DNA of 18,386 nucleotides from an uncultured Verrucomicrobiales bacterium (GCA_903898185.1 CAIUEN010000050.1:1-18386); one strand, 5' to 3'; shown: positions 130-15,851, counted from the stretch's first letter. A program made the numbers and translations. The notes: generated by a model not told the origin, from the letters alone.

Positions 130-1056
130 CTAGGCGTAGTCGCCCTGCTTCTTCGGCGGCACGCCCCAAGTGAAACGCTGGAAGCGGTCGCCGCTGCCGC
201 CCTCGCCCAAGGTGAGACCAGTGGACCAGGTTTTGTCGGAGAAAGGCGGATTGGCGACGACGTAGTCGTAGGTGCGGAGCAGTTCGCCGTCCTTGAACTT
301 GGGATCGTAGAGGGTGTTTCCCGAGAGGACGTTGGCTGTGGGGAAGTCGTGCAGGATCATGTTCATGCGGGCAAGACCGGCGGTGGTCACGTCCTTTTCC
401 TGACCTTCAAGGGTGATGTGCTTGCCGGCCTCGGCGGCGACTTTCAGCAACAGCGAACCGGAGCCGCAGGTTGGGTCGTAGGCGGTGGTGGCGGCTTTGG
501 AATTGGCCGGGGAGATCCCGATGGCCTTGGCCATGATGCGGCTGACCTCGGAGGGAGTGTAGAACTGGCCCTTGCTCTTGCCGCTCTCTGTGGCGAAGTG
601 CCGCATGAGATACTCGTAGGCGTCGCCAAGGATGTCATCGTTTTCGGCGCGGTTTTTTGAGAAATCGAGAGCGGGGTTCTCGAAGATGGCGATGAGGTTG
701 CCCAGCTTCTCGACCTTCTGGGCGCCGTCGCCGAGTTTGTTGGAGTCGTTGAAGTCGGGGAAATCGCTACGGGCGAGCCGGGAGTTGGCGTCAATCAGCG
801 GCTGAATGACCTGGGTATTGATCTTGTCGCCGATGTCATCCCTGCCCTTGAGCGCGACCATGTCCTTGAAGCTCGCTCCCTTCGGAATGACGACCGGCGG
901 GGCAAAATCCTTGGAATCGCCGTATTTATCTGAGATGTATTTGATGAACAGCATGAACAGGACGTAGTCCTTGTATTGGCTGGCATCCATGCCGCCGCGC
1001 AGTTCATCGCACGAAGCCCAAAGTGAGGAATAGAGGTCAGATTTTTTTAAGGCCAT
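130..1056 (-). pseudogene. hsdM: Type I R-M HsdM-family N6-adenine DNA methyltransferase, C-terminally truncated remnant
   Basis: Translation has an HsdM N-terminal domain (LWASCDELRGGMDASQYKDYVLFMLFIKYISDKY) and the AdoMet motif I DPTCGSGSLL. It also has the catalytic motif IV NPPF, followed by FTWGVPPKKQGDYA. In intact HsdM this region continues for about 150-200 aa more, but here an in-frame stop falls at 130 only about 40 aa after NPPF. No frame of bases 1-129 continues the protein, since all three hit stops (ctag/tag). No hsdS or hsdR is in the window. Confidence 0.75.
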
Positions 1057-1433: not shown

Positions 1434-3140
1434 TCAACAACGATTCTGGATTTTATTGCTACATGAAAGAATAGTTGGAAACCAACGCTCAATCTCAAAG
1501 ACCCTTACGGCACGGAGTTGTTCGGTCGTCAGTTCCGGGGGGAGCATCACTGTGGGGCGTCTTCCCGCTGCCCCCGTCACAGTTTGCACCAGCGTGGCAC
1601 GAATTTCGGCCAGGCTCTTCATCATTTGCTGTGCCGAAGCGCTCGTGCCCAACGCCAGCTTGGCCAAGCTCACCAGCAACAGCCCCAGCACTGTGGCAAA
1701 AGTGTGCAACCGCAGCGACCCCTCGGCCCACTGGTGCGACGGCCCCCACGAAATCAGCCCGCCTTTTTTGGTCCGCCGGAAAAGTTCTTCCACGTTCCAC
1801 TGGCCCCGGAAAGCATGCACGATCCGATCGGTGCTCCAACTGTGTCGGTCGGTGCAAAGCACCCGTCGCCCCAAGCAGGTTTTCTCCAGTTGGCACCGCA
1901 AGGCGACATCGACCCGCCAGCCAAACGTGGGCCGTTGGTCGCTGCCGCCGATGGTGGTCACCACGAAACTCGACAGATGCTCCCGGGCCAGCACCTTCTG
2001 GCAGCACTCTTCCAAGCGGTCCCGGCATAGACGGCCCGCTTGAACCAAACGCTCCAGCTTGCGCAGTTCCTTTGTGGCCTTGCGCAGCGCGACCGCGATG
2101 CCCCGCTTCTGTCCCTCCAACGATTCTTCACTCTCGACCACCACCAGTGTGCGATCCAGCTCACCCACGGGTGTTCGCAACCGAGCCGCTCGGACATGTT
2201 TAAGTTTACCCGAAAGCGGCTGCATCGCTCCACACTGCGCTGCCTGTTCCAAAGCGGCTTGCGCGGCGGAGTGCCCGGTCGGCAGCGAGATGATGCTGTG
2301 GTAGCCGATCCGATCCAGATCCTGTTCCAACTGAGGGCTCCAGAATCCGCCGTCGCGCACCAGTGTGCGTTGCGGGGCGCGCTCGGCCCCGTTGTCGAGC
2401 CCTTGGTGCAGTTGCTTCAATCCCTCCAGGCAAGCCTCCATCACGCCTTGATCGGAGCCATTGCCGGAGTATGTCCGATACAACAACGGCACATGTCCGG
2501 TCTCGCTGACCAGCAGGCCCACCCCCACCACGCGCAGATCGCCGCGTTTGCTCTTGGCGTGACCGCGCTGGGAGAGTTTGCCCGATGTAAGAGTGGAAAT
2601 GTGCGTGTCGAAGTTGGTCGTGTCAAAGGCCAGCACATCGGTCGAGAGTTCGAACCGGGCAACAGCCGCCTTGGAAATCGCCACATGCGCCTTCTCCAAG
2701 GACTGCTCGTCAACCTGTTGGGCTACGCGATGAAACGCCTGGCCGCTGAAGGCCGCGCCGCGCAAACACGAGAGGCGAGGCACACTGGCATCCAAGAAGT
2801 CGCCCAAGTCGCATTTGGGTCCCGGTGAACAGACGCTCTGAATGGCCACCGCGACCACCAGTTCGCCAATGGAAGGTCCGTTTTTGGCTCCGAGGCAACC
2901 GCAGGCCCGGTCTATAAGACCAATCATATCCAACTGCTCGGCTATCCAGATCAAGGCACCAACGTCGCCGATAGCGCGCGTGCCGACGCTGCGCGTAGCG
3001 GCCAAGTCTGCGAACGGTGGAGGTGCGACCGGCCCCAGCACAACTTGACGCGCAACCGAGCGCCCACCGGCAGGGTCCCAAACAGATTGGGCGGCGATGC
3101 GGTATCGGTGGCCGTTGATTTCACGTTCAAAGATATGCAT
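1434..3140 (-). CDS. IS1634-family (IS4-related) DDE transposase, 568 aa
   Basis: The length is typical, about 570 aa. The N-terminus (MHIFEREINGHRYRIAAQSVWDP...) and the central segment VVGVGLLVSETGHVPLLYRTYSGNGSD are recalled as characteristic of IS1634-type transposases. The ORF is single and uninterrupted. The nested ORFs inside it (1456-2043, 1475-2203, 2040-2828 and others) are high-GC artefacts. Confidence 0.8.
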   Translation of the reverse strand: MHIFEREINGHRYRIAAQSVWDPAGGRSVARQVVLGPVAPPPFADLAATRSVGTRAIGDVGALIWIAEQLDMIGLIDRACGCLGAKNGPSIGELVVAVAIQSVCSPGPKCDLGDFLDASVPRLSCLRGAAFSGQAFHRVAQQVDEQSLEKAHVAISKAAVARFELSTDVLAFDTTNFDTHISTLTSGKLSQRGHAKSKRGDLRVVGVGLLVSETGHVPLLYRTYSGNGSDQGVMEACLEGLKQLHQGLDNGAERAPQRTLVRDGGFWSPQLEQDLDRIGYHSIISLPTGHSAAQAALEQAAQCGAMQPLSGKLKHVRAARLRTPVGELDRTLVVVESEESLEGQKRGIAVALRKATKELRKLERLVQAGRLCRDRLEECCQKVLAREHLSSFVVTTIGGSDQRPTFGWRVDVALRCQLEKTCLGRRVLCTDRHSWSTDRIVHAFRGQWNVEELFRRTKKGGLISWGPSHQWAEGSLRLHTFATVLGLLLVSLAKLALGTSASAQQMMKSLAEIRATLVQTVTGAAGRRPTVMLPPELTTEQLRAVRVFEIERWFPTILSCSNKIQNRC

Positions 3141-3186
3141 ATTCTTTCACGTAGCATATCCATCGGCACGTCGTCAAGCATGCGTG

Positions 3187-3214
3187 TTGGATGTTTGCCT
3201 CGTGAGTTTATATG
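3187..3214 (+). promoter_or_regulatory. candidate sigma70-like promoter for dnaE (TTGGAT - 16 nt - TATATG)
   Basis: A -35-like TTGGAT (3187-3192) and a -10-like TATATG (3209-3214) with a 16-nt spacer, about 175 nt upstream of the dnaE ATG. Consensus matching in an organism of unknown sigma specificity is weak evidence. Confidence 0.2.
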
Positions 3215-3387
3215 CCGTTGAGCGCGGTTTCACAAACGGCAGCCCTCAAAAATGCGAAATGCGGGCTAAACACCCAAAGAGCCATCGGGCGGGACGCCCG
3301 ATCTTTGTCACTGGCACTGGGCGCGTTGCCGCGCTGATGAAAAATCCCTCGCATAGGATTCGGTTGGTCTTCATAATCACCGAAAGT

Positions 3388-6300
3388 ATGTCGCACGCTG
3401 ACTTTGTTCATCTTCATGTTCACACCGAGTATTCGCTGCTCGATGGCGCTTGCCGCATGGACCGGCTCATGGATAAAGCGCATGAGCTGAAGTTCCCTGC
3501 CTTGGCGATAACCGATCATGGCGTGCTCTTTGGGGCCATCGATTTTTATCAGGCCGCCCGCAGCAAGGGGATCAAGCCGATCATCGGCTGCGAGGTCTAT
3601 ATCGCACGGGGAAGCCGCCTGGAGAAAAAGGCCGGTCTGGGCGGGAAAGATGGATATAATCACCTGATTCTGCTGGCCAAGGACGAGGCCGGATACAAGA
3701 ACCTGGTCAAGCTGGTTACTTTGGCGCACTTGGAGGGCTATTATTACAAGCCGCGCATCGACCGCGAAATCCTGGCCACCTACAAGGACGGCTTGGTGGC
3801 TCTCTCATCCTGTCTCAAGGGTGAAATCCCCGAGTTGATCGCCGATGACCGCCTTCCCGATGCCCGGAAAGCCATTGATTGGTACAAGCAAACGCTTGGG
3901 GCGGAGAACTTTTACCTCGAATTACAGGATCACGGCATCCCGGAGCAGGCCAAGGTGAACCGAGTTCTGATTCCGCTTGCCAAGGAATTCGGAATCAAGC
4001 TCGTCGCCACCAACGACGTTCATTACATCGAGAAAAACCACTCGCACGCCCACGATTGCCTGATTTGCATCGGCACGCAGACACAACTTGCCGACACCAA
4101 GCGGATGCACTACGCCCCCGAGCAGTTTTATCTGCGCTCGGCTGAGGAGATGAAGGCCCGCTTTCACGAGATCCCGGAGGCGGTGAGCAATACGCTGGAA
4201 GTGGCCCAGCAGTGCAATGTCGAGATTGAGTTCGGCAAACTCCATTATCCGATCTTCAGTCCACCGGAGCATTTTACGCGCGAGGGTTACCTGCGCAAAC
4301 TGGTCGCCGAAGGACTCCATTTCCGTTACGGGATGAATGTTCGGGCTGAAGGACAGGAATTCATCGTCGATGGCTTGGGAGACCCGCGCCGATTGCCAAC
4401 GTACGTTCCTGCGCCTGGAACCACGGTTCCGGAAGACCCGAAACTGGCCATGCAGGATCCCCAGGTGGCCGCCGCGATCAAGGTTGTCATCGACCGCCTT
4501 GACCTGGAAATGAAGGTAATCGAACAGACCGGCTTCATCAGCTACTTCTTGATCGTCGGCGACTTTGTTCGCTACGGTCGAAGCAAAGGCGTCACATGCG
4601 TGGCGCGCGGATCGGCGGCTGGTTCGATTGTGACTTATGTGCTGGAGATTTCGAACGTCGATCCGATTCGTTACGGGCTGCTGTTCGAACGATTCCTCAA
4701 CCCGGAACGCGTCAACCCTCCCGATATCGACATCGACTTTGCCGACGACCGCCGGGCTGACGTGATCGAATATGTGCGCGAGAAATATGGACGCGATTCG
4801 GTGGCGCAGATCGTCACCTTCGGCACAATGGGCGCCAAATCGGTTCTGCGGGATGTCGGTCGCGTCATGGGCTTGGGTTATTCCGACTGCGACCGGTTGG
4901 CCAAGATGATTCCCAACGAACTGAAGATGTCGCTGGAAAAAGCGATGGGGATGTCGCCGGACTTTAAGCAGGCTTACGAGACCGAAGAGGTCACCCATGA
5001 ACTGGTCGATACCGCCCTGGTTCTCGAAGATCTCACCCGCAACGCATCGGTTCACGCGGCCGGCGTGCTTATTGGCGATCAGCCGTTGCACAATCTTCTG
5101 CCGCTCAAAAAGGATGAGGATGGCACCATTGTCACCCAATACGCCATGGGCCCTGTCGGCGACCTCGGCCTGCTGAAGATGGACTTCCTTGGGCTCAAGA
5201 CCTTGACGGTCATCCGCAATACCTGCGATCTTGTCAAGCAGACCCAGGGAATCGACATCCCCATTGACGACCTTCCGCTCGACGACGCCAAGACCTACGA
5301 CCTTCTCAACAAGGCCAATACCATCGGTGTGTTCCAATTGGAATCTGGAGGAATGCGCGATCTCTGCAAAAAGTTCAAGATTAGCTCGGTGGAACATATC
5401 ACGGCGTTGGTGGCGCTCTATCGTCCGGGACCGATGGACCTGATCCCCGATTTCATCAAGCGCCGGCATGGCGAGGTGAAAATCGAGTATGATCATCCGC
5501 TGCTGGAGTCGATCAGCAAAGAGACCTATGGCGTGCTGATCTACCAGGAACAAGTCATGCAGGCCGCGCAGTTGCTCGCCGGCTACACGCTCGGCGGCGC
5601 TGATCTGCTGCGCCGCGCGATGGGCAAGAAGAAGATCGAGGAAATGGCCAAGCACCGTGACAAATTCGTCAAGGGAGCAGCCAAGCTCAACAATATCCAC
5701 GAGGCCAAGGCCAACCAGATTTTCGATTTGCTCGAGAAATTCGCTGGCTACGGTTTCAACAAGTCGCACGCGGCCGCCTATGCCATCGTCGCCTACCAGA
5801 CGGCTTACCTGAAGGCCAATAATCCTGTCGAGTTCCTCAGCGCCATGATGACCAACGACATGAGCGACACTGCCAAGTTGAGCATCCTGATCAACGAGGC
5901 GAAGGCGTTCGATGTCGAAGTTCTCGGCCCCGACATCAACGAAAGCGGCGTGTTTTTTACGCCCGCCAAGGTAGAGCAGGCTTCCAGCCTGCTCAGGGGA
6001 GACACGAGAGGGCTGCAGTCACCACAGTTGGAACAGGCGGGACGCGCTGTTCTACCAGAGCAGGCTTCCAGCCTGCTCGGGGGGGACGTGAAAGGGTTGC
6101 AGTCACCACAGCTTGAACAGGCGGGACGCACTGTTCTACCAGAGCAGGCTTCCAGCCTGCTCGGGGGGGACGTGAAAGGGCTGCAGTCACCACAGCTTGA
6201 ACAGGCGGGACGCACTGTTCTACCAGAGCAGGCTTCCAGCCTGCTCAGTGGGGACATGAGAGGGTTGCAGTCACCACAGTCTGAACAGGCGGGACGCGCT

Positions 6301-7398
6301 GTTCTACCAGAGCAGACTTCCAGCCTGCTCAGTCGGAACATGTCCACCGCCATCCGTTTCGGCCTTGCCGCCATCAAAGGCGTGGGCGAGGTCGCCGTGC
6401 AAAGCATTCTTGATGCCCGGAAAGCCGGTGGAAAATTCACCTCCCTTTCCGAGTTGTGCGAGCGCGTCGATGGCCGGACTGTCAATCGCAAAGTCCTCGA
6501 ATCGCTCATCAAATCCGGAGCGTGCGATTGTTTCAACGAAACCCGCGCCTCGCTTTTCGGCAAGATAGATCGCGCGCTTACGCGGGCGGCCGGGGTGATC
6601 AACGACCGGCAGCGCGGACAAGACACGTTGTTCGGCATGTTGGAAGAAACGCCCGACCGCAAGCCCGATGTTGAGAAACAGTTGCCGGAGTGGCCGCAGC
6701 ACGAACTGCTGGCGCATGAGAAAGAACTGCTGGGCTTCTATGTCAGCGGCCATCCGCTCACGCCCCTGGCACCGATCATTGAGCAATACGCGTTGCATAA
6801 AACAAACCAGCTTCCGGCGCTGCCTTCGCGCGGAATGACCCGCATCGGCGGCATGATCGCCGTCGTGCAAAAGGGGTTTTCCAAGAAAAGCAACAAACCG
6901 TATGCAATGGTGACACTGGAGGATTTGGAAGGCTCGGTGCAGATCCTCTGCATGAACGAGAACTACGACAAATATGTCGATCTCCTGGTTGTCAATAAAC
7001 CAATCCTGGTGATCGGCGAGGTCAATAATTCCGAGGACAAGCCCAAGATATTCCCACAGGAAATCATGCCTTTGGAAGATGCCCCTCGCAAATTCACCCG
7101 GCAGGTTCATTTTCGTTTGCAGACGGCGCAGATTGTTCCCGACGACCTGAATTCAGTGATCGACATTGTGGCGGCCCACCCGGGCCGATGTCCGCTGTTT
7201 CTCTGTTTCATGCGCCCGGGCGGCGAGGTTGTATTCCTGGAGACGCACGAAAAATACGGAGTCTGCCCGTCTGTGCCCCTGCAAAAAGCCGTGGACGAAC
7301 GCTACGGCGAAGGCACGTATTACGCCAGGGTGGATGCAAGCTTGCCAGAGCGGGAGAAACGCCGATGGGAGAAGAAGTCTGAAGGAAACGGTGAATAG
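3388..7398 (+). CDS. dnaE: DNA polymerase III alpha subunit (DnaE), about 1336 aa, with an in-frame repeat insertion
   Basis: The true start is the ATG at 3388 (MSHADFVHLHVHTEYSLLDGA), which matches the canonical DnaE N-terminal PHP motif. The 3097 start in the ORF track is an upstream extension overlapping the transposase start. The protein has a PHP domain, a polymerase core (GxGYSDCD..., KMDFLGLKTLT, FNKSHAAAYA), IRFGLAAIKGVGE HhH/beta-binding segments and an OB-fold C-terminus. Confidence 0.95.
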   Translation: MSHADFVHLHVHTEYSLLDGACRMDRLMDKAHELKFPALAITDHGVLFGAIDFYQAARSKGIKPIIGCEVYIARGSRLEKKAGLGGKDGYNHLILLAKDEAGYKNLVKLVTLAHLEGYYYKPRIDREILATYKDGLVALSSCLKGEIPELIADDRLPDARKAIDWYKQTLGAENFYLELQDHGIPEQAKVNRVLIPLAKEFGIKLVATNDVHYIEKNHSHAHDCLICIGTQTQLADTKRMHYAPEQFYLRSAEEMKARFHEIPEAVSNTLEVAQQCNVEIEFGKLHYPIFSPPEHFTREGYLRKLVAEGLHFRYGMNVRAEGQEFIVDGLGDPRRLPTYVPAPGTTVPEDPKLAMQDPQVAAAIKVVIDRLDLEMKVIEQTGFISYFLIVGDFVRYGRSKGVTCVARGSAAGSIVTYVLEISNVDPIRYGLLFERFLNPERVNPPDIDIDFADDRRADVIEYVREKYGRDSVAQIVTFGTMGAKSVLRDVGRVMGLGYSDCDRLAKMIPNELKMSLEKAMGMSPDFKQAYETEEVTHELVDTALVLEDLTRNASVHAAGVLIGDQPLHNLLPLKKDEDGTIVTQYAMGPVGDLGLLKMDFLGLKTLTVIRNTCDLVKQTQGIDIPIDDLPLDDAKTYDLLNKANTIGVFQLESGGMRDLCKKFKISSVEHITALVALYRPGPMDLIPDFIKRRHGEVKIEYDHPLLESISKETYGVLIYQEQVMQAAQLLAGYTLGGADLLRRAMGKKKIEEMAKHRDKFVKGAAKLNNIHEAKANQIFDLLEKFAGYGFNKSHAAAYAIVAYQTAYLKANNPVEFLSAMMTNDMSDTAKLSILINEAKAFDVEVLGPDINESGVFFTPAKVEQASSLLRGDTRGLQSPQLEQAGRAVLPEQASSLLGGDVKGLQSPQLEQAGRTVLPEQASSLLGGDVKGLQSPQLEQAGRTVLPEQASSLLSGDMRGLQSPQSEQAGRAVLPEQTSSLLSRNMSTAIRFGLAAIKGVGEVAVQSILDARKAGGKFTSLSELCERVDGRTVNRKVLESLIKSGACDCFNETRASLFGKIDRALTRAAGVINDRQRGQDTLFGMLEETPDRKPDVEKQLPEWPQHELLAHEKELLGFYVSGHPLTPLAPIIEQYALHKTNQLPALPSRGMTRIGGMIAVVQKGFSKKSNKPYAMVTLEDLEGSVQILCMNENYDKYVDLLVVNKPILVIGEVNNSEDKPKIFPQEIMPLEDAPRKFTRQVHFRLQTAQIVPDDLNSVIDIVAAHPGRCPLFLCFMRPGGEVVFLETHEKYGVCPSVPLQKAVDERYGEGTYYARVDASLPEREKRRWEKKSEGNGE
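5974..6332 (+). repeat. 84-bp tandem repeat, about 4.25 copies, in-frame inside dnaE; each unit begins with a 21-bp perfect palindrome
   Basis: Units start at 5974, 6058, 6142 and 6226, with a partial unit at 6310. The units are about 90-95% identical. The core gagcaggcttccagcctgctc is an 8-bp stem with a 5-nt loop. Each unit encodes a 28-aa module, LPEQASSLLGGDVKGLQSPQLEQAGRTV, with R/G, V/M and T/A variation. The array is inserted between DINESGVFFTPAKVEQ and NMSTAIRFGLAAIKGVGE. Confidence 0.9.
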
Positions 7399-7414: not shown

Positions 7415-7687
7415 ATGCCGCAAGCAATCATGGATCCTGAGCAAGTCCGGCGGTTTGCCGAGGAACTTAAGCGTTTTAACGCTGATCTCCAAGACCGAAT
7501 GTCGGCGTTGCAAGGGCGTTTCGCCGCGTTGGGTGATAGTTGGCAGGATCAGGAGCACAAGAAGTTTGCCGATGAATTTGTCCAAACGCTCAAGGCGATG
7601 AAGAGGTTCGTTGAGATATCCAATCAGCACACCCCTTACCTGTTGCGCAAGGCCCAGCGTATCGAAGAATATCTGAACCAACGATAA
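7415..7687 (+). CDS. small helical WXG100-like (ESAT-6/EsxA-like) protein, 90 aa, with a W-x-D variant of the WXG turn
   Basis: The ATG lies 17 nt after the dnaE stop, preceded by GGAGCGAAGAGA. The protein is about 90 aa, predicted all-helical, with a central turn LGDSWQDQ. W43-Q44-D45 sits at the same position as the W43-x-G45 turn of ESAT-6. It shares the motif DSW(Q/R)D...F...(F/Y) with the 70-aa ORF at 8404. The ORF-track 7166 start is an artefactual extension back into dnaE. Confidence 0.55.
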   Translation: MPQAIMDPEQVRRFAEELKRFNADLQDRMSALQGRFAALGDSWQDQEHKKFADEFVQTLKAMKRFVEISNQHTPYLLRKAQRIEEYLNQR

Positions 7688-7691
7688 AATC

Positions 7692-8264
7692 ATGGCCGTC
7701 GGCGCCCATGTCACATCCATCGAAGCTCTCGAATCATTTCGAGCGAATCTGATCGTTTACATCAACAAAGCCCGACCGACTTTGGAGGAAATCAGCTCGG
7801 ATGTAATGCGGACGCGGCTTTGGCTGGAGAACAACCAGCGTCTGCACTGGGAAGCCCAGTTACAGCGGCGCGCCAAGGAATTGGAGGCCGCGCGGCAAGA
7901 ACTCTTCAGCGCGGGATTGGCAAATCTGAGGGATACCACGGCTGCCGAGATCATGGCTGTTCGCCGGGCCGAACGGGCGCTTGAGGAGGCCGACAACAAG
8001 CTGCGCTTGGTCAAGAAGTGGACGCGTGAATTTGACAGCCGGACAGCCCCGGTGGCCAGGCAATTGGAAAAGCTCGCAACCATGCTGGCCAACGACCTGC
8101 CGTCGGCGGTCGCGTTCCTGTCGCAAATCATCAAGACTCTCGATGCCTACGGAGCAGGCGGATCAACGCCCGTTCTTTCCGAGGCGACGGCCACGGTCAA
8201 AACCGATCCAGCAGCAGCGAAACCGGACGAGACTGTTCCGTCTCAACCCTCGAACTTGCCATGA
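7692..8264 (+). CDS. hypothetical helical protein, 190 aa (candidate accessory or chaperone component)
   Basis: The ATG is 5 nt after the preceding stop. The protein is predicted coiled-coil/helical with a low-complexity A/T/P-rich C-terminal tail. No recognisable family. Confidence 0.55.
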   Translation: MAVGAHVTSIEALESFRANLIVYINKARPTLEEISSDVMRTRLWLENNQRLHWEAQLQRRAKELEAARQELFSAGLANLRDTTAAEIMAVRRAERALEEADNKLRLVKKWTREFDSRTAPVARQLEKLATMLANDLPSAVAFLSQIIKTLDAYGAGGSTPVLSEATATVKTDPAAAKPDETVPSQPSNLP

Positions 8265-8265
8265 G

Positions 8266-8400
8266 CAGCAATTCTCATTTTGAGCAAGGAACGGGGAAAA
8301 ACCTGGTCTGCCTGCGCACGAATTTTTCGACTCCCTTGCGGAGCCAGAGGCACCGCAACTGGCAGGCCAGAGGCCTACCCCACATAATGAGAATTGCTGT
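8266..8400 (+). repeat. Roughly 115-bp intergenic element, copy 1, bracketed by a 14-bp inverted repeat (cagcaattctcatt / aatgagaattgctg); candidate structured RNA or MITE
   Basis: About 85% identical over roughly 115 bp to 18194-18307 in the same orientation. Both copies share ttttcgactccc, gagccagaggcac and the hairpin aggccagaggcct. The inverted-repeat arms abut the upstream stop (8264) and the downstream start (8404) exactly. Confidence 0.6.
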
Positions 8401-8403
8401 GCC

Positions 8404-8616
8404 ATGAGCGTTGCCGCCAACAAAGCCAGGCTGATATCCTCCACGCGCGAGCTGGCGGCACAATGGGCGTTGACCAAGGATTCCTGGCGAGATGTCAAAT
8501 GCCTGGAATTCGAGCGCAAATACATGGAACAGCTTGTCTCCAATGTCGAAGCGGCGATGGAAGTGATTGATCAGTTGGACAAGCTTGTCAGCAAGATCAG
8601 GAGCGATTGTGAGTAG
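8404..8616 (+). CDS. small helical WXG100-like protein, 70 aa, paralogous to the 7415 ORF
   Basis: It has LTKDSWRDVKCLEFERKY, parallel to LGDSWQDQEHKKFADEF in the 7415 ORF. It is predicted helical. Its stop overlaps the GTG start of the downstream ATPase gene. Confidence 0.5.
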   Translation: MSVAANKARLISSTRELAAQWALTKDSWRDVKCLEFERKYMEQLVSNVEAAMEVIDQLDKLVSKIRSDCE

Positions 8617-11600
8617 CGCATTATCGGTGAGTCAGGTATTGGAGTGTCTGGAACGCCTCCGGGATGCGGCGCGCGACTGCGCCGTGCGCGAACGGGATCT
8701 CAACCAGAAGCGTCAGTCGCGTCTCAATCTCCTGGCTCAGAATCGCCAGGCGGCCACCGATGCGCAGAATGTTCAATTAGCGGAACAGCTTGACTTGGTT
8801 CGCGCCTGGTTTGAAGCAGCGAAGACAACCCCAAGAAACCATCGCGAACGCCGACGGATTCGCATCCATGAAGCTTGGAAGAACAGCCGAAAACAGGCAT
8901 CTGAGCGGATCGAAGCGCAAGAAGGACGCCGCAAATATAAACTGCAAACCGAAACCATGCAGGCCGCCCGCACTCGCAAAAATGATCTGGAGGCCGCCGA
9001 AAAAGCGCGCAACGATTTCAAAGCCGAACTGGAATTGGAAAATCAAACGCTGGCGCAGCTTGAGAATACCGCGAGAGAGGCGTTTCAAGGCTACGCCAAA
9101 TTTTCCGGGATGCTCAACTACACCGCGCCGGACCTTGCTCCAGGAAGCGATGAATATCAACTGATTGTCACGTTGCGGGAGTCGCTTGACAACAGTCGCA
9201 GCGGAATCGAACGGTTCCAACGCTATTTTCTGCCACGTCTTTTCAGGCTCACTCCACTCTTGGTTCCGCTGGCGCTGACCCTCGGCGCTGTGCCGCTGTT
9301 GCGGTCATTGCAGATGGTTGTTTACGGTTGGACTACAGCCATCGTATTGGTTGGATCGCTCTTTGCGGTTGGGTTTGTCCTGCATCACATGGGCAAGCGT
9401 CAGGGGCTGAGGCTTGCCGGCGAGATATCCCGGGCGCTGGTGCGGGCGCGCAAATTGCGCGATGGCTGTCTTGCCCATTGCGACGCGCGTTACACGCGGG
9501 AAACCGAGCGGATTGAAGCCGAACATCGATCTCGCAACGAGTCAATCACTCAGCAGTGGGGCCAGGCCGTGAACGATTCAAAGCAGATGACAGAGCCGGC
9601 GCTGGCCAGAATGGATGAAAAGAAAGCGCGCGCGACCACCCGAATGGAACGGCTGTTTCAAGCCGCCGTTGAAGCCCTGGCTCGCGAGCAATCCCGGCGA
9701 GTGGAGAGGATCCAACGCGACATACAGGATTACCTCGATGAATTGGAGCGGACCTGCGAGAATAGAGAAACGGCATTGCGCAATGAGATGGAGTCGCAAT
9801 GGCAGACGCTGGAGAGAGATTGGAAGACGGCTGTAAAACCGCTCTTTGCCACCATTGTGAGCGCTCAAAGTCAGGCTGCGAAATTCCCTGAATGGAACCG
9901 TTCAACCGTTCAAAGCTGGACGCCGCCGGCAGTCTTTGAGCATGCGGCCAAATTCGCAAGGGTCGTTGTCGATGTCGAAAAACTGGCGGATGCGCTGCCG
10001 ACCGACCCACGACTTGCTTTGCCGGGGCCCTGTCATTTTGAGGTGCCGCTCCTGCTGACGTTTCCGCAACAGGGCTCGGTCTTGTTTGAAACCAGCGATG
10101 CGTCCACCGAAGGTGTCGTCGCATGCGTCAACAACATCATCCTGCGTCTGCTGTTCGAAGCCCCGCCAGGACGGCTGAACTTTACGATTTTTGATCCAGT
10201 CGGACTGGGCCAGAATTTTGCGGGTGTCATGCATCTGGCCGATTACGAAGATCACCTGATCAACAGCCGCATCTGGACACAGCCCGCGCAATTCGAGCAG
10301 AAGCTGGCCGATCTCAACGAGCACATGGAGAAGGTCATCCAGATGTACCTGCGCAATGAATACGCGACCATCGCCGAATACAACGAGCAGGCGGGCAACA
10401 TTGCCGAGAAATATCATTTTCTCGTCGTTGCCAATTTTCCGTCCGGGTTTACCGAGACAGCGGCCCTGCGCTTGTTGAGCATTGCGGCCTCGGGAGCGCG
10501 TTGCGGCGTTTATACGCTGATTCACTGGGATCATCGCCAGCCCAGCCCGTCCGATTTCGTGCCGGATGAATTGATCAAGGGGAGCATTTGTCTCACTGTC
10601 AAAGGCAGTCGTTTTCTGCTTTCGCGCGGACAGCTTCCCGGCACGAGCATCGTTCCGGATCTGGCTCCCGAGCCCGACCTGGCAATCGAGCTGATTCATA
10701 AAATTGGCCTGAGCAGCCGCGATTCCAACCGCGTGGAGGTGCCATTCTCCCACGTTGCGCCACCGGACGACGCGCTCTGGAATCTGGAGACCACGTCGGA
10801 ACTCCGGGTGGCGTTTGGACGCACTGGCGCGACCAAGTTGCAGTACTTGGCCATCGGCAAGGGCACCCGCCAGCATGCTCTGTTGGCCGGCAAAACCGGG
10901 TCGGGTAAATCGACGCTCTTGCACGTTATCATCACCAACCTGGCGCTCTGGTGCAGCCCCGAACAGGTCGAGTTCTATCTGGTCGATTTCAAGAAGGGGG
11001 TTGAATTCAAGTGTTATGCCACCAAACGCCTGCCGCATGCGCGGGTGGTGGCCATTGAGAGCGACCGAGAGTTCGGCCTGAGCGTTCTGCAACGAGTCGA
11101 TGCCGAACTCAAGCGGCGCGGCGATCTTTTTCGCAACCTGGGCGTTCAGGATCTTGCCGGTTACAAACGGGCGGGTGGCGTCGAATCACTTCCCCGGACG
11201 CTGCTGATCATTGACGAATTTCAGGAGTTCTTTGTCGAGGATGACAAGATTTCGCAATCGGCGTCGCTGCTGCTGGACCGGATTGCGCGCCAAGGCCGCG
11301 CATTTGGGGTTCACGCCATTCTTGGATCTCAGACGCTCGGTGGGGCATATACGATGGCTCGCACAACTTTAGGGCAAATGGTCATTCGCATTGCCTTGCA
11401 ATGCAACGAGGCGGATTCCTACCTCATCATGGACGAGAACAACTCCGCGCCGCGCCTGCTCTCGCGTCCAGGAGAAGGCATTTACAATGACTCCGCTGGC
11501 GTCATGGAAGGGAACAGCCCGTTTCAAACCGTGTGGCTGTCGGACGAGTGTCGTGACATGTGGCTGGACAAAGTGCGCTATCGGGCTGACCAGGCACAAC

Positions 11601-12493
11601 CGAAAGCTTACCCAGGGCCGATTGTGTTCGAAGGCGACGCGCCGGCGGACATTCGCGAAAACCCGTTGCTTCAGTCCCTTCTGGAGACTCCGGTTGTCCG
11701 CCCGCCCGCTGCTGCGCGCGCCTGGCTGGGCGCTCCCAATTCGATCAAAGGCCCGACAGAGGTCACGTTTCAACGTCAGAGCGGGAACAACCTCCTTATT
11801 ATAGGCCAGCAGGACGAGGCTGTCCTGGCTATTTTTACCACAACATTGGTGGCGCTGGCAGCGCAACATCCAGGCGACACCGCCCGGTTTATCGTAGTTG
11901 ATGCCTCGGCACCCGGATCGCTCCATCGCGACTACGTTGAACGCCTTGTCCAGTCGATCCCTCGCCAGGTTTCGCTGGCGCGGAACAGCGATCTTCCGGA
12001 AATCATGAGTAGGCTGGCGTCTGACCTCAAGAAATCTGCTGAGCATGACAACAAGGCAACGCCATCGACGTATTTGCTGATTCACGGTCTGCAAAAATTC
12101 TCCAAACTGCGTTACGAGGAGGACTTTGGCTTCTCAAGCGATCCGGCCATCGCAGCCAATCCGTCCGTGGCGCTCAACACATTGATCTGCGAGGGCGCCA
12201 GCCACGGTATTCACGTCATTGCCTCATGCGACACCTACAATAACGTCGTCCGGTTTCTGAGCCGGAAAGCGCTGGGCGAATTTGAAATGCGGGCGCTCTT
12301 CCAGATGAGCGCCAACGATTCCGCAAGTTTGATTGACAATCCACGAGCGGGCAACCTGGGTCTGCACCGTGCGATTTTCTCCAATCAACACGAGGGATAC
12401 CTGGAGGTCTTCCGTCCATATGCGTTGCCGTCGGCGCAGTGGATTGAGGAAGTAACGCGGGCGATGGATAATCGTCGCGTTATTTTGTACTGA
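8609..12493 (+). CDS. Membrane-anchored FtsK/SpoIIIE-family ATPase with three tandem FtsK-like domains (EssC/EccC-like T7SS ATPase candidate), about 1294 aa
   Basis: The preferred start is GTG at 8609 with AGGAG 6-7 nt upstream, overlapping the upstream stop. The TTG at 8567 in the ORF track is less likely. The N-terminal roughly 210 aa is a charged coiled coil. It is followed by two TM helices (LTPLLVPLALTLGAVPLLRSL and VVYGWTTAIVLVGSLFAVGFVL, about nt 9245-9383). The central domain has Walker A HALLAGKTGSGKSTLLHVI (about nt 10888-10914) and Walker B TLLIIDEFQEF (about nt 11201-11230). The flanking domains are degenerate but clearly paralogous: LLLTFPQQGSVLFETSDASTEG...NFTIFDPVG and NLLIIGQQDEAVLAIF...RFIVVDAS...TYLLIHGLQKF. 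The nested antisense ORF 9902-11092 is an artefact. Confidence 0.8.
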   Translation: MSSALSVSQVLECLERLRDAARDCAVRERDLNQKRQSRLNLLAQNRQAATDAQNVQLAEQLDLVRAWFEAAKTTPRNHRERRRIRIHEAWKNSRKQASERIEAQEGRRKYKLQTETMQAARTRKNDLEAAEKARNDFKAELELENQTLAQLENTAREAFQGYAKFSGMLNYTAPDLAPGSDEYQLIVTLRESLDNSRSGIERFQRYFLPRLFRLTPLLVPLALTLGAVPLLRSLQMVVYGWTTAIVLVGSLFAVGFVLHHMGKRQGLRLAGEISRALVRARKLRDGCLAHCDARYTRETERIEAEHRSRNESITQQWGQAVNDSKQMTEPALARMDEKKARATTRMERLFQAAVEALAREQSRRVERIQRDIQDYLDELERTCENRETALRNEMESQWQTLERDWKTAVKPLFATIVSAQSQAAKFPEWNRSTVQSWTPPAVFEHAAKFARVVVDVEKLADALPTDPRLALPGPCHFEVPLLLTFPQQGSVLFETSDASTEGVVACVNNIILRLLFEAPPGRLNFTIFDPVGLGQNFAGVMHLADYEDHLINSRIWTQPAQFEQKLADLNEHMEKVIQMYLRNEYATIAEYNEQAGNIAEKYHFLVVANFPSGFTETAALRLLSIAASGARCGVYTLIHWDHRQPSPSDFVPDELIKGSICLTVKGSRFLLSRGQLPGTSIVPDLAPEPDLAIELIHKIGLSSRDSNRVEVPFSHVAPPDDALWNLETTSELRVAFGRTGATKLQYLAIGKGTRQHALLAGKTGSGKSTLLHVIITNLALWCSPEQVEFYLVDFKKGVEFKCYATKRLPHARVVAIESDREFGLSVLQRVDAELKRRGDLFRNLGVQDLAGYKRAGGVESLPRTLLIIDEFQEFFVEDDKISQSASLLLDRIARQGRAFGVHAILGSQTLGGAYTMARTTLGQMVIRIALQCNEADSYLIMDENNSAPRLLSRPGEGIYNDSAGVMEGNSPFQTVWLSDECRDMWLDKVRYRADQAQPKAYPGPIVFEGDAPADIRENPLLQSLLETPVVRPPAAARAWLGAPNSIKGPTEVTFQRQSGNNLLIIGQQDEAVLAIFTTTLVALAAQHPGDTARFIVVDASAPGSLHRDYVERLVQSIPRQVSLARNSDLPEIMSRLASDLKKSAEHDNKATPSTYLLIHGLQKFSKLRYEEDFGFSSDPAIAANPSVALNTLICEGASHGIHVIASCDTYNNVVRFLSRKALGEFEMRALFQMSANDSASLIDNPRAGNLGLHRAIFSNQHEGYLEVFRPYALPSAQWIEEVTRAMDNRRVILY

Positions 12494-12547: not shown

Positions 12548-13105
12548 ATGATCTTTTTCGTTTATGTCATCTGTCTTGGGGCGGGGTTTTTATTTACCCT
12601 GCTTGCGGCAGTTATGGGCCATGTGTTTGGCCATGACGGCCATGTCGTGGGCAGCCACGGCTCGGTCGAAGCCGGCGAGGACGGCAGCGATTCCTCAGGC
12701 GTGTCGGCGTTCAGTCCGACAATCATTGCCGCGTTTGTAACGGCTTTTGGCGGTTTGGGACTGATTTTCACGCAAGTTCAAGCCACGAAGAGCCCGCTTA
12801 TCAGCGCGCCATTGGCGATTGTGGGCGCACTGGTCATTGCATCCCTCATGGTGAGGGTGCTGCGACAGCTATTCGCGCACACACAGAGTTCGAGCGAATC
12901 CCATGTGGCAACCTTGGTGGGGGTTTGCGCGAATATCATTTCGCCGATCCCAGCAAATGGCATGGGTGAAATCGCCTATGTCCAAGGCGGTAGCCGCTAT
13001 ACCGCGCCCGCGCGGGAACTCACAGGCCAACCGGTGGCGATGGGACAGCCGGTCAAAATCGCAAAAATCATCGGTTCCCAATTTTACGTAACAATCATCA
13101 ACTAA
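12548..13105 (+). CDS. NfeD-like (YuaF/YqiJ-type) membrane protein partner of flotillin
   Basis: Hydrophobic N-terminal TM segments, a His-rich loop (HVFGHDGHVVGSHGS) and a C-terminal OB-fold-like beta segment (GEIAYVQGGSRYTAPARELTGQPVAMGQPVKIAKIIGSQFYV). It is placed immediately upstream of an SPFH gene (stop 13105, next ATG 13109), as in yuaF-floT and yqiJ-yqiK. Confidence 0.7.
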   Translation: MIFFVYVICLGAGFLFTLLAAVMGHVFGHDGHVVGSHGSVEAGEDGSDSSGVSAFSPTIIAAFVTAFGGLGLIFTQVQATKSPLISAPLAIVGALVIASLMVRVLRQLFAHTQSSSESHVATLVGVCANIISPIPANGMGEIAYVQGGSRYTAPARELTGQPVAMGQPVKIAKIIGSQFYVTIIN

Positions 13106-13108
13106 ACT

Positions 13109-14647
13109 ATGAGCATCACACCCATTTTGGCAGAATTGAACCCCTTGAGCGTCCTTTTGAGCGGAGGCTGGGTTGTCATCTCGATCATCGGGATTGTCTT
13201 GATGGCCTTCTTTGTCCTGGCGGCCATTCTCAGCCGCTACACCAAGGTTGGCCCCAATCAAGTCCTCGTCGTCTCTGGACGCAAGCATCGTTACTCCGAT
13301 CCGGATGGAAGAATCCAAACCCGCGGCTTCCGTATTGTCAAAGGCGGCGGAACATTCGTTTATCCCATCGTTGAAAAAGTGGATCTCCTATCGCTCGAAC
13401 TGCTGACGATCGACGTTCAGACACCCGAGGTTTATACAAGCAAAGGCGTGCCGGTTAAAGTGGACGGCGTGGCACAGATCAAGATCAAGGGTGACGATAT
13501 TTCCATCGCGACCGCAGCCGAGCAGGTCTTGAGCAAGACGATTGACGAAATCAAGAGCGTGGCCACCCAGACGCTGGAGGGCCATTTGCGCGCAATTCTC
13601 GGCACGATGACCGTTGAGGACATCTACCAGAACCGCGATGCCTTTGCGTCGAAAGTCCAGGAAGTCGCCGCAGGCGACATGGCCAACATGGGCTTGGGAA
13701 TTGTGAGCTTCACCATTCGCGATATCCGCGATGGCCAGGGCTACTTGGACGCGTTGGGCAAGCCTCGCATTGCGCAAGTCAAACGCGACGCCATCATCGC
13801 GCAGGCCGAAGCAGATCGCGACGCGACGATCCGCTCCTCACAGGCCACACAAGCCGGCCAGGAGGCCAAGTTTGCCGCCGATGCCAAAATCGCCGAAGCT
13901 CAGCGCGATTATCAGATGAACGTCGCCAGCTACCAGGCCTCGGTCAATCTTAAGAAAGCCGAAGCCGACCTGGCCTATGACTTGCAGAAATATAAGACCG
14001 GCCAGTTGGTGAAGGCCGAAGAGGTGCAAGTCAACATCATCGAGAAACAGAAGCAGATTGAGCTCCAACAGCAGGAAATCCTGCGCAAACAACGCGAACT
14101 GGAAGCCCAGGTGCAAAAGCCCGCCGATGCCGAACGCTACCGCGTCCAGACGCTGGCCAGCGCCACCAAGTTCCAGCTCGAAACCGAAGCCGACGGCGCG
14201 GCCGCTGCCACCAAGGCCAAAGGCTTTGCCTCGGCCGAAGTCGTCAGGGTCACCGGTCTGGCCGAAGCCGAAGCCAACAAGGCGCGCGGATTGGCCGAAG
14301 CCGCCGTCATCGAGGCCCAGGGATCAGCAACGGCCGAGGCGATGAAACTCAAAGCCGAGTCCTTCAAGCAATACAACGAAGCCGCCGTCGTCGAAATGAT
14401 CGTCCGCATTCTGCCTGAACTCGCAGCCAAAATCAGCGAACCGCTCTCGAAGACTGAGCGCATGGTTATCATCAATAGCGGCAATGGCCCCGGCGGCGGC
14501 GCCAGCAAGCTCACCGGCGATATCACCCAGATCATCAGCCAGTTGCCACCCGTCATCGAGAGTTTGACAGGGATCAAATTCGAAAAACTGCTCGAACAAG
14601 TTCCGGCTCTGAAAAACGCGATGAGCAAAGATGCGGAGCCGAAATAG
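13109..14647 (+). CDS. floT: Flotillin (SPFH/band-7 family, FloT/YuaG/YqiK-like), 512 aa
   Basis: An N-terminal membrane anchor, an SPFH domain, then a long Ala/Glu/Lys/Gln-rich coiled coil with EA repeats typical of flotillins. Confidence 0.9.
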   Translation: MSITPILAELNPLSVLLSGGWVVISIIGIVLMAFFVLAAILSRYTKVGPNQVLVVSGRKHRYSDPDGRIQTRGFRIVKGGGTFVYPIVEKVDLLSLELLTIDVQTPEVYTSKGVPVKVDGVAQIKIKGDDISIATAAEQVLSKTIDEIKSVATQTLEGHLRAILGTMTVEDIYQNRDAFASKVQEVAAGDMANMGLGIVSFTIRDIRDGQGYLDALGKPRIAQVKRDAIIAQAEADRDATIRSSQATQAGQEAKFAADAKIAEAQRDYQMNVASYQASVNLKKAEADLAYDLQKYKTGQLVKAEEVQVNIIEKQKQIELQQQEILRKQRELEAQVQKPADAERYRVQTLASATKFQLETEADGAAAATKAKGFASAEVVRVTGLAEAEANKARGLAEAAVIEAQGSATAEAMKLKAESFKQYNEAAVVEMIVRILPELAAKISEPLSKTERMVIINSGNGPGGGASKLTGDITQIISQLPPVIESLTGIKFEKLLEQVPALKNAMSKDAEPK

Positions 14648-14761
14648 TGGGAGCAGGAGGATTGAATCATGCCTATCCGGTTGCTTGCCAATCATCCACG
14701 CCTTGAATTGTGTGGAATTGAGCATTGTGCCACGCCTTCAGCCGACGCCAACGGCGTCCTT

Positions 14762-14963
14762 CATACCAGCCTGGGGCAACGCCCCAGGTATGGTGCCACG
14801 GACGATCCAAGCGCCAAAGGCGCGATTCATATTCGGCGCGGCATGGTGGAACGATGCGCACAAAGAACGCTTCACCAAATGAATCGCGCCTTCAGCGCTT
14901 GCGGCTCTCCATATCCCATACCTGGGGCGTTGCCCCAGGCTGATATGAATCGCGCCTTTGGCG
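14762..14963. repeat. Cluster of GC-rich palindromic (REP-like) elements in the floT to beta-CA intergenic region
   Basis: Hairpin A at 14762-14793 (cataccagCCTGGGGCaaCGCCCCAGGtatgg). Its reverse-complement copy A' is at 14916-14947 (ccataCCTGGGGCGttGCCCCAGGctgatatg). Motif B at 14811-14832 (gcgccaaaggcgcgattcatat) has reverse-complement copies at 14942-14963 and, imperfectly, at 14877-14899. The ORFs predicted across this region (14669-15040, 14725-14943, 14738-15046) are probably spurious. Confidence 0.55.
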
Positions 14964-15014
14964 CTGGGCGGGCCATACAACACGAAAATCAACCTGTTTT
15001 GACCAAAATCACTT

Positions 15015-15851
15015 ATGCGCCTTCTCGAATACATCATTGATGCCAACCATCGCGCGTTGGCGGGAGATCAGAAGGACGGAATTGATCCCGCCGATTACGC
15101 TCAATCTCTGCCGCTGATCGCTCTGACTTGTATTGACCCGCGCTTGAACCGCTTTTTTCCCGACATTCTGGGTGTGCCAGAAGAGCAGTTTATCTGGCTG
15201 CGCAATGCTGGAAACATCATCACCAGTCCGCTCAGCAGCACCATGCGCTCGATGGCGCTGGCGTGCGCCGTTAAACGTGGACGCGAGATCGCGGTCATCG
15301 GCCACACCGACTGCCGCATTCGTCAGACCCCCATTACGGCTTTAATTGAGTATTTCAAGGAACTTGGAGTGAGCCGCGCCGCGTTGCCTGATAATTTGAC
15401 GGAGTTTTTTGGAGTGTTTGCCAGCGAACAACAGAATGTCATGCGGGCTGTAGATCATATCCGCGCCAGTCCGCTGATCGGCCCTTCCATCCCGGTGCAT
15501 GGCTTGATGGCGGATGTCCGCACAGGTCGGCTTGAATGGGTGGTCAACGGATATGACGTTTTGGGACGCGCCGCAGTCCCGTTGCCTGCCAGCAAACAGC
15601 CCGCCATCGGAAAAGCTCTGGACGAAGTGAGTGCGCTGGGTGATTTCAAGCTCGGCGAAATGAAATTCCCAGAAGTCCGCATCGGCGAGATTGCAACCGA
15701 TGTCAAACTCAAGGTCAGCCAGGCGAAGGAAACCGTGGAGTCCGCCAAGAAAGCGTTGCGGCCCATACCCTCCGCCCATCCTCCGGAGCCGCCGCCCATC
15801 CCACCGCCAATTCGCCCACAGCAGCGCGGAAAATGGGGCATGCGGGATTGA
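15015..15851 (+). CDS. beta-carbonic-anhydrase-like protein with a Pro-rich C-terminal extension
   Basis: It has CIDPR (the beta-CA Cys-x-Asp-x-Arg motif) and IAVIGHTDCR (His-x-x-Cys zinc ligands), though C-R replaces the canonical C-G. The C-terminal roughly 90 aa is an extension ending PPEPPPIPPPIRP. Confidence 0.5.
   Translation: MRLLEYIIDANHRALAGDQKDGIDPADYAQSLPLIALTCIDPRLNRFFPDILGVPEEQFIWLRNAGNIITSPLSSTMRSMALACAVKRGREIAVIGHTDCRIRQTPITALIEYFKELGVSRAALPDNLTEFFGVFASEQQNVMRAVDHIRASPLIGPSIPVHGLMADVRTGRLEWVVNGYDVLGRAAVPLPASKQPAIGKALDEVSALGDFKLGEMKFPEVRIGEIATDVKLKVSQAKETVESAKKALRPIPSAHPPEPPPIPPPIRPQQRGKWGMRD

Follow-up and report, generated by a model that had tools for sequence, protein, structure and literature searches.

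The window analysed here is a stretch of 18,386 nucleotides (nt) from an uncultured Verrucomicrobiales bacterium (GCA_903898185.1 CAIUEN010000050.1:1-18386). It carries a gene (8609..12493) encoding an ATPase of 1294 amino acids (aa) with three FtsK-like domains, of which domain 2, the middle one, is the sole catalytically intact domain, judging from its conserved residues. The gene probably specifies the ATPase of a compact WXG100-associated system, which is related to secretion systems of type VII (T7SS) and occurs mainly in genomes labelled Verrucomicrobiota. All coordinates are those of the window, and the ATPase gene, its internal features and the genes associated with it upstream lie on the forward (+) strand.

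Architecture of the ATPase

The ATPase gene at 8609-12493 is real. It starts with GTG at 8609, with AGGAG nine bases 5' of it, and ends with the stop codon at 12491-12493; an ENA protein (P0001) of equal length has 99% identity to its product, and the orthologues share the motif MSxxLxV as their N-terminal opening. These are the coordinates given in the sequence-only reading that preceded this analysis, and all of the motifs quoted there were located in the protein: LLLTFPQQGS at aa 481, HFLVVANFPSGF at aa 603, GKTGSGKST at aa 761, IIDEFQEF at aa 867, LLIIGQQDEA at aa 1062 and LLIHGLQKF at aa 1156. The protein runs from a charged helical N-terminus through a two-helix membrane hairpin and a helical stalk to three FtsK-like alpha/beta domains (domains 1, 2 and 3, at aa about 440-715, 730-1000 and 1036-1294). 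The AlphaFold2 (AF2) model, which covers aa 421-1294 only (predicted local distance difference test, pLDDT, 79), has three alpha/beta domains of one kind between the stalk and the C-terminus; its top structural match in the PDB is the cytoplasmic region of T. curvata EccC (E 1e-29), with EssC and then FtsK next. Identity among orthologues is 82% in domain 2, 65% in domain 1 and 59% in domain 3, and about 30% in the N-terminal, membrane and stalk regions.

Domain 2 (10796..11608) has the sequence hallmarks of a bona fide FtsK/SpoIIIE ATPase. The Pfam PF01580 FtsK_SpoIIIE match at aa 730-909 has an E value of 2.5e-33 (115.8 bits versus a cutoff of 24), and 32 aligned relatives show no variation in the Walker A GKTGSGKS (nt 10889-10912), the Walker B LLIIDE (nt 11201-11218), R891/R894/R897 or Q908. 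The earlier statement that the middle domain keeps GKTGSGKST and IIDEFQEF is confirmed. The three arginines stand where the helix before strand 4 ends, the expected place of an Arg finger, and the candidate finger lies in LLDRIARQGRAFG (nt 11270-11308), followed by the putative sensor GSQT (nt 11312-11335); the finger and sensor roles of these residues and of Q908 are assigned by analogy (PMC11154593).

Domains 1 and 3, as profile comparison and the AF2 model indicate, are true FtsK-like folds which have lost their catalytic residues. Domain 1 (9926..10753) was recognised from a weak FtsK_SpoIIIE match (borderline in Pfam when the domain is searched alone, E 3.8e-5), an AF2 model (pLDDT 81.6) and the motif variation of the family. 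Its hhalign alignment to domain 2 is weak and spans the Walker B strand; N609 falls on D869 and F610 on E870, in agreement with the Walker B position originally assigned, and FLVVANF (nt 10418-10438) is the Walker B equivalent. Orthologues have D, N or S in place of N609 and then an invariant Phe, mostly as VVAD-F. The P-loop equivalent is SVLFET-SDAST-EG (nt 10076-10114, aa 490-502). Loss of the P-loop had been proposed from the sequence and stands; the proposed register (LLLTFPQQGS) is about 10 residues off and corresponds to the preceding beta-hairpin strand, since hhalign of domain 1 against domain 3 and DSSP on the AF2 model place the equivalent segment at ETSDASTEG.

Domain 3 (11714..12490) has no Pfam match when searched alone; it was recognised by hhalign to domain 2 and by its alpha/beta fold in the AF2 model. 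The profiles of domains 3 and 2 align in register over 196 columns (probability 95.7%, E 9e-9), pairing AGKTGSGKST with IGQQDEAVLA and IIDEFQEF with LIHGLQKF, so that the P-loop Lys/Ser of domain 2 become V1072 and L1073, and D869/E870 become H1159/G1160. The P-loop equivalent LLIIGQQDEAVL (nt 11792-11827) and the Walker B equivalent YLLIHG (nt 12071-12088) agree with the assignments made at the outset for this domain. Neither domain 1 nor domain 3 has Walker A/B motifs of the PF01580 type: both are without the P-loop Lys/Ser and the catalytic Glu, and no phosphate-binding Lys or Ser/Thr is kept. HMMER searches of PDB sequences, a method too insensitive here, returned noise only for domain 1 and one weak match for domain 3 (E 0.12, in the D2 region of EccC5). 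The possibility, raised in the sequence-only reading, that the flanking domains are unrelated folds was checked by profile and fold comparison, which found them to be of the FtsK kind. Their strong conservation among orthologues (65% and 59% versus about 30% outside the three domains) argues for a retained non-catalytic function and not for decay.

The N-terminal cytoplasmic region (8609..9223, aa 1-205; composition and heptad scan) contains 33% charged residues (D/E/K/R), 14% Q/N and only 4% Pro+Gly, with about 33% identity among orthologues and no match to FHA or to any other Pfam family. Its description as a highly charged region without an FHA fold holds, while that of a long coiled coil is only partly borne out, clear heptad regularity being limited to aa 6-34 in a crude heptad scan. 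The membrane hairpin (9239..9394) is made of two hydrophobic helices, at about aa 211-232 and 240-260 (Kyte-Doolittle scan), and the three close orthologues that were checked (P0002, P0017, P0027) have both segments as well. Basic residues flank the hairpin on both sides, which points to an N-in/C-in topology. The hairpin is followed by a second charged helical region, the stalk (9395..9883, aa 263-425), which was absent from the earlier description; it was delimited by composition and has a heptad signal at aa 352-392 and weak matches to coiled-coil families.

Comparison with EccC, EssC and FtsK

EccC and EssC have four ATPase-like cytosolic domains, namely a degenerate nucleotide-free domain of unknown function (DUF), an active D1 and the degenerate D2/D3 (PMC11154593; PMC9436818). 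Because the dead DUF precedes the active D1, a dead-active-dead order is already the norm in these proteins. The claim that the present protein departs from the EccC/EssC domain order is thus not supported in the form in which it was made. Profiles of DUF, D1, D2 and D3 were built from six EccC/EssC-like actinobacterial sequences, and the best match of domain 2 was EccC D1 (E 2.4e-29; D2 7.6e-18; D3 5.7e-7), that of domain 3 was EccC D2 (E 3e-10; D1 1.5e-5; D3 1.8e-4), and that of domain 1 was also EccC D2 (E 1.8e-5; D1 5e-3; DUF 0.6). Additionally, domain 2 matches positions 412-670 of the EccCa model (E 7e-32), and its PDB sequence match is EccC5 residues 490-653. By these profiles, a motor with a D2-like domain after it is the order already known, domain 1 is the equivalent of DUF in position only, and the protein has one C-terminal domain fewer than EccC.

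It is possible, but somewhat unlikely, that domain 1 is instead a true DUF orthologue, in which case the ATPase would be an EccC-type protein minus its last domain (DUF-D1-D2) and its logic would not be new. Domain 1 is membrane-proximal and directly before the active domain, as DUF is (8RIN, 6UMM); its P-loop is degenerate, and in most orthologues the Walker B position reads VVAD-F, with the Asp and without the catalytic Glu, like the hhhhDD/hhhhDV of DUF (PMC11154593). Domains 2 and 3 also best match EccC D1 and D2 in that order. However, the comparison of domain 1 with DUF, for which the profile holds only the six actinobacterial sequences, is null (E 0.6) while those with D2 and D1 are not, and the structural similarity of domain 1 to DUF is clearly below that to canonical FtsK-type domains. 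As a separate observation, the consensus of the domain 3 pseudo-P-loop, VGQRDEAxL (window 11792-11827), resembles the degenerate P-loop LVGEREQVL of the EccC5 DUF, although the HMMER alignment of the two is non-significant; in EccC5 this segment forms an extended helix in place of the loop (PMC11154593).

Among characterised proteins, EccC (T7SSa, Actinobacteria; T. curvata 4NH0, M. tuberculosis EccC5 7NP7) shares with the ATPase a membrane hairpin N-terminal to stacked FtsK-like domains, one fully active domain with a dead ATPase-like domain before it and a degenerate one after it, the lack of FHA domains and a genetic linkage to WXG100. EccC differs in having four ATPase-like domains instead of three, the first of which domain 1 does not detectably resemble, and in its EccB/EccD/EccE/MycP partners, none of which is present in the window or in the gene cassette described below. 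In the present ATPase, both dead domains are without any P-loop lysine and long helical regions flank the membrane hairpin, whereas EccC D2 and D3 retain nucleotide-binding P-loops and the EccC counterparts of the 205-aa N-terminus and of the about 160-aa stalk are short. EccC is also stimulated by EsxB in its activity or multimerisation.

EssC/YukB (T7SSb, Bacillota; 5FV0, 4LYA, 9QKS) shares a large cytoplasmic N-terminal module before the hairpin with N-in/C-in topology, stacked FtsK-like domains of which the terminal one is fully degenerate, and nearby genes for WXG100 and for small helical partners of WXG100-like type (PMC10765036). Its N-terminal module consists of two FHA domains, whereas here the module is helical; S. 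aureus EssC requires the Walker motifs of D1 and D2 (PMC9436818), whereas here one domain only has them; and no EsaA/EssA/EssB/EsaB accompanies the ATPase here, whose host is diderm.

FtsK/SpoIIIE translocases and TcpA are more distant. A DNA translocase of the FtsK, SpoIIIE, TraB or TcpA type, acting in segregation or conjugation, is a very improbable reading of the gene. Relatives are labelled 'DNA segregation ATPase FtsK/SpoIIIE', FtsK and the coupling protein TcpA are similar in fold, and dnaE lies upstream in the window. However, the FtsK gamma, FtsK_4TM and alpha domains (PF09397, PF13491, PF17854) gave no match in the ATPase, while the true FtsK relatives P0050 and P0051 carry such domains, and three tandem domains and a WXG100 linkage set the protein further apart from these translocases. 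The dnaE neighbour is unconserved whereas the linkage to WXG100 is tight, and EccC/EssC match better than FtsK (NF007615 E 2.5e-9 versus EccCa E 7e-32).

The WXG100 cassette and its proposed function

The ATPase gene is the last of a four-gene cassette, a context absent from the sequence-only reading. The first gene (7415..7687) encodes a WXG100-family protein of 90 aa (Pfam PF06013, E 4.2e-11, 43.4 bits versus a cutoff of 27.3). A WXG100 gene is at the same position in loci L001, L002, L083 and L085, and one was found in 72 of the 83 sequences searched (82 fetched loci and this window). The second gene, p190 (7692..8264), encodes a helical protein of 190 aa with no Pfam, NCBIfam or PADLOC match; members of its family give coiled-coil noise only, and its comparison with WXG100 (hhalign, Pfam, PDB) gave nothing specific. 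The third gene, p70 (8404..8616), was found in 76 of the 83 sequences; its 70-aa product has W21, W28 and D30 (W-R-D) as invariant residues, together with DCE at the C-terminus. More members of the p70 family match WXG100 than any other Pfam family, though weakly (3/19, best E 0.0023), and in hhalign the W motifs of p70 and the WXG family are aligned (E 0.031); p70 may be a short partner of WXG100-like type. Its stop codon and the ATPase start share 8 nt, an overlap which suggests translational coupling.

Of 73 related loci, which mostly carry the label Verrucomicrobiota and were taken from species-representative genomes with enough upstream DNA, 68 keep the order WXG100-p190-p70-ATPase, and p190 lies between the WXG100 gene and p70 in the same proportion (68/73). 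The carriers include metagenome-assembled genomes labelled Prosthecobacter, Chthoniobacter, Luteolibacter and Akkermansiaceae. The outer flanks of the cassette differ between loci, and the orthologues are found in unrelated chromosomal neighbourhoods. In the present genome, p190 and p70 are separated by a gap of 139 nt (window 8264-8404), while the two are adjoining or overlapping genes in most relatives; the p190 tail is also longer here, Pro/Ala-rich and unconserved.

The ATPase family is large, as measured by profile searching. The domain-1 profile alone retrieved 2894 cluster representatives at 50% identity; among the best 150 matches, most full-length proteins have about 1300 aa with the domain equally placed, and the shorter entries, which are many, are probably fragments. 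Among the more distant relatives, P0042 (42% identity) has genes for a 71-aa protein and a WXG100 protein directly upstream. P0041 (L083 6001-10698; 44% identity) keeps the upstream WXG100, 173-aa and 75-aa cassette, and has a Ser/Thr kinase domain at its N-terminus together with an Ala-rich helical region; a gene for a small FHA-domain protein was also noted about 3.5 kb 3' of P0041. EssC-like relatives have FHA domains at the N-terminal position (PMC9436818). This swapping of N-terminal modules (helical here, FHA in EssC, kinase in P0041) suggests that the module is a regulated input site, serving regulation or the binding of partners.

The protein is regarded as a variant of the T7SS-type ATPase that has three domains and belongs to diderm bacteria. 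Here it is proposed, by analogy with EccC and EssC, that it would serve in secretion, with the WXG100 protein as a presumed export substrate. The ATPase would be anchored in the inner membrane through the two-helix hairpin, with both ends cytoplasmic and the three FtsK-like domains stacked below, and it would be expected to be hexameric, as FtsK, EccC and EssC are. The ring of domain 2 alone, the counterpart of EccC/EssC D1, would bind and hydrolyse ATP and supply the energy. Domain 1, in the place of DUF, would probably couple the motor to the stalk and the membrane helices or mediate ring assembly; domain 3, closest to EccC D2, would probably serve the small helical proteins encoded upstream as a module for regulation or substrate docking; and the variable N-terminal helical region may act as a regulatory or partner-binding module.

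Several findings weigh against a secretory T7SS relative. The NCBIfam equivalog cutoffs were missed for EccC (TIGR03924/TIGR03925, 110.9 versus 509.15 and 99 versus 346.55) and for EssC (TIGR03928, 81.8 versus 778.4). No Pfam/NCBIfam match to EccB, EccD, EccE, MycP, EsaA, EssA or EssB was found in the window, L001, L002 or L083, and nothing in the cassette would be able to carry a protein across the outer membrane. The central motif of the 90-aa WXG100 protein is W-Q-D, in which the Gly of W-x-G is replaced, with W and D highly conserved in 73 aligned family members. Furthermore, P0041 has no hydrophobic membrane segment, which fits poorly with a self-sufficient membrane pore. The lack of an outer-membrane route and of other core components, together with this membrane-less relative, leaves real room for a non-secretory function.

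In such a function, the ATPase would act as a machine for remodelling or signalling, either associated with the membrane or cytoplasmic, with the WXG100-like helical proteins as adaptors or regulators. This is considered unlikely overall. Besides the absence of an outer-membrane component and of other T7SS core genes, the kinase domain of the membrane-less P0041 and the FHA protein near it would suit a signalling role, as would the occurrence of the cassette in many lineages at varied chromosomal sites and not in islands. However, wherever WXG100 and an EccC/EssC-type ATPase have been characterised as a pair, they form a secretion system (PMC4010439; PMC10765036); the hairpin is conserved in the close orthologues P0002, P0017 and P0027, and the domain order mirrors that of EccC.

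A role as an anti-phage defence component of SspH, Mads or HerA type can be given very little credence. PADLOC models matched the ATPase (SspH E 4e-26, mad8 E 2e-19, and HerA models), and an HsdM fragment and a transposase are upstream in the window. The SspH, mad8 and HerA matches are confined to the ATPase domain (aa about 730-950), with weaker matches to LeoBC and ZorA on helical regions, and the defence reading of the PADLOC matches was rejected since the strong ones cover the generic ATPase domain only. The small cassette genes have no PADLOC match, dnaE separates the HsdM gene from the cassette, and in other genomes the cassette is flanked by ordinary housekeeping genes.

The pairing itself has been noticed before. 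Pairs of WXG100 and FtsK/SpoIIIE in Gram-negative phyla, including Verrucomicrobia, were noted in 2011 (Sutcliffe 2011, as cited), and the papers citing this work describe their function as unconfirmed (PMC10765036; PMC6471051). The locus described here is one instance of this pairing as outlined there (PMC6471051). Those papers give co-occurrence only, and the four-gene cassette, the three-domain logic and the breadth of the family are not in them (PMC10765036; PMC6471051). In the searchable literature, WXG100 in Verrucomicrobia came up in general mentions only, and neither the cassette nor the three-domain logic was found described.

Other features of the window and meaning of the locus

Upstream of the cassette, the dnaE open reading frame (ORF; 3097-7398) is not a conserved partner. 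It contains an in-frame 84-bp tandem repeat (window 5973-6332; 4.3 copies, 93% matching), which encodes four 28-aa units (EQASSLLGGDVKGLQSPQLEQAGRTVLP) between the finger and HhH domains of DnaE. Such a repeat insertion is unusual in a replicative polymerase. Further upstream, at 130-1056 (-) and 1434-3140 (-), an HsdM-like N6-adenine methyltransferase ORF adjoins a DDE transposase. The HsdM-like ORF covers positions 2-164 of the 311 of the N6_Mtase profile, its first half only, and this half-profile match beside a transposase suggests a disrupted type I restriction-modification locus.

Downstream of the ATPase gene, 12548-13105 (+) encodes a 185-aa transmembrane protein with hydrophobic N-terminal segments and no family match, possibly NfeD-like, and 13109-14647 (+), 3 nt after it, encodes a FloT-type flotillin (NF058507 E 2e-153, below the equivalog cutoff). 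These look like a separate two-gene unit; they were considered as members of the ATPase system and rejected, being absent beside the ATPase orthologues. An Rfam Acido-Lenti-1 RNA match is found at 14921-14965 (+; 39.8 bits versus a gathering score of 37), with related arms at 14746-14793 and 14807-14832; inverted copies of this 48-nt element are close by, between the flotillin and carbonic-anhydrase-like genes. The ORFs listed in that gap (e.g. 14669-15040) are probably not genes.

T7SS research has dealt almost wholly with Actinobacteria and Bacillota, and in reviews the Gram-negative WXG100/FtsK pairs are unconfirmed curiosities (PMC10765036). The present locus shows that in Verrucomicrobiota the pair is part of a cassette of four genes, tightly conserved and present in many genomes, whose ATPase is simplified, one live domain lying between two dead ones. 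It is tentatively suggested that the cassette may constitute a self-contained and widely conserved third type of T7SS-like export system in diderm Verrucomicrobiota, with the ATPase as its sole membrane component. If so, it would either represent the T7SS core in minimal or ancestral form or put the WXG100/FtsK pair to a new use, and what would define it mechanically is a motor ring with a nucleotide-free pseudo-ATPase ring on either side. Should the cassette export proteins, it would represent a minimal T7SS-like machine in diderms and a simpler system in which to study the roles of the pseudo-ATPase rings of EccC/EssC; should it not, the partnership of WXG100 proteins with their ATPase would have a function beyond secretion.

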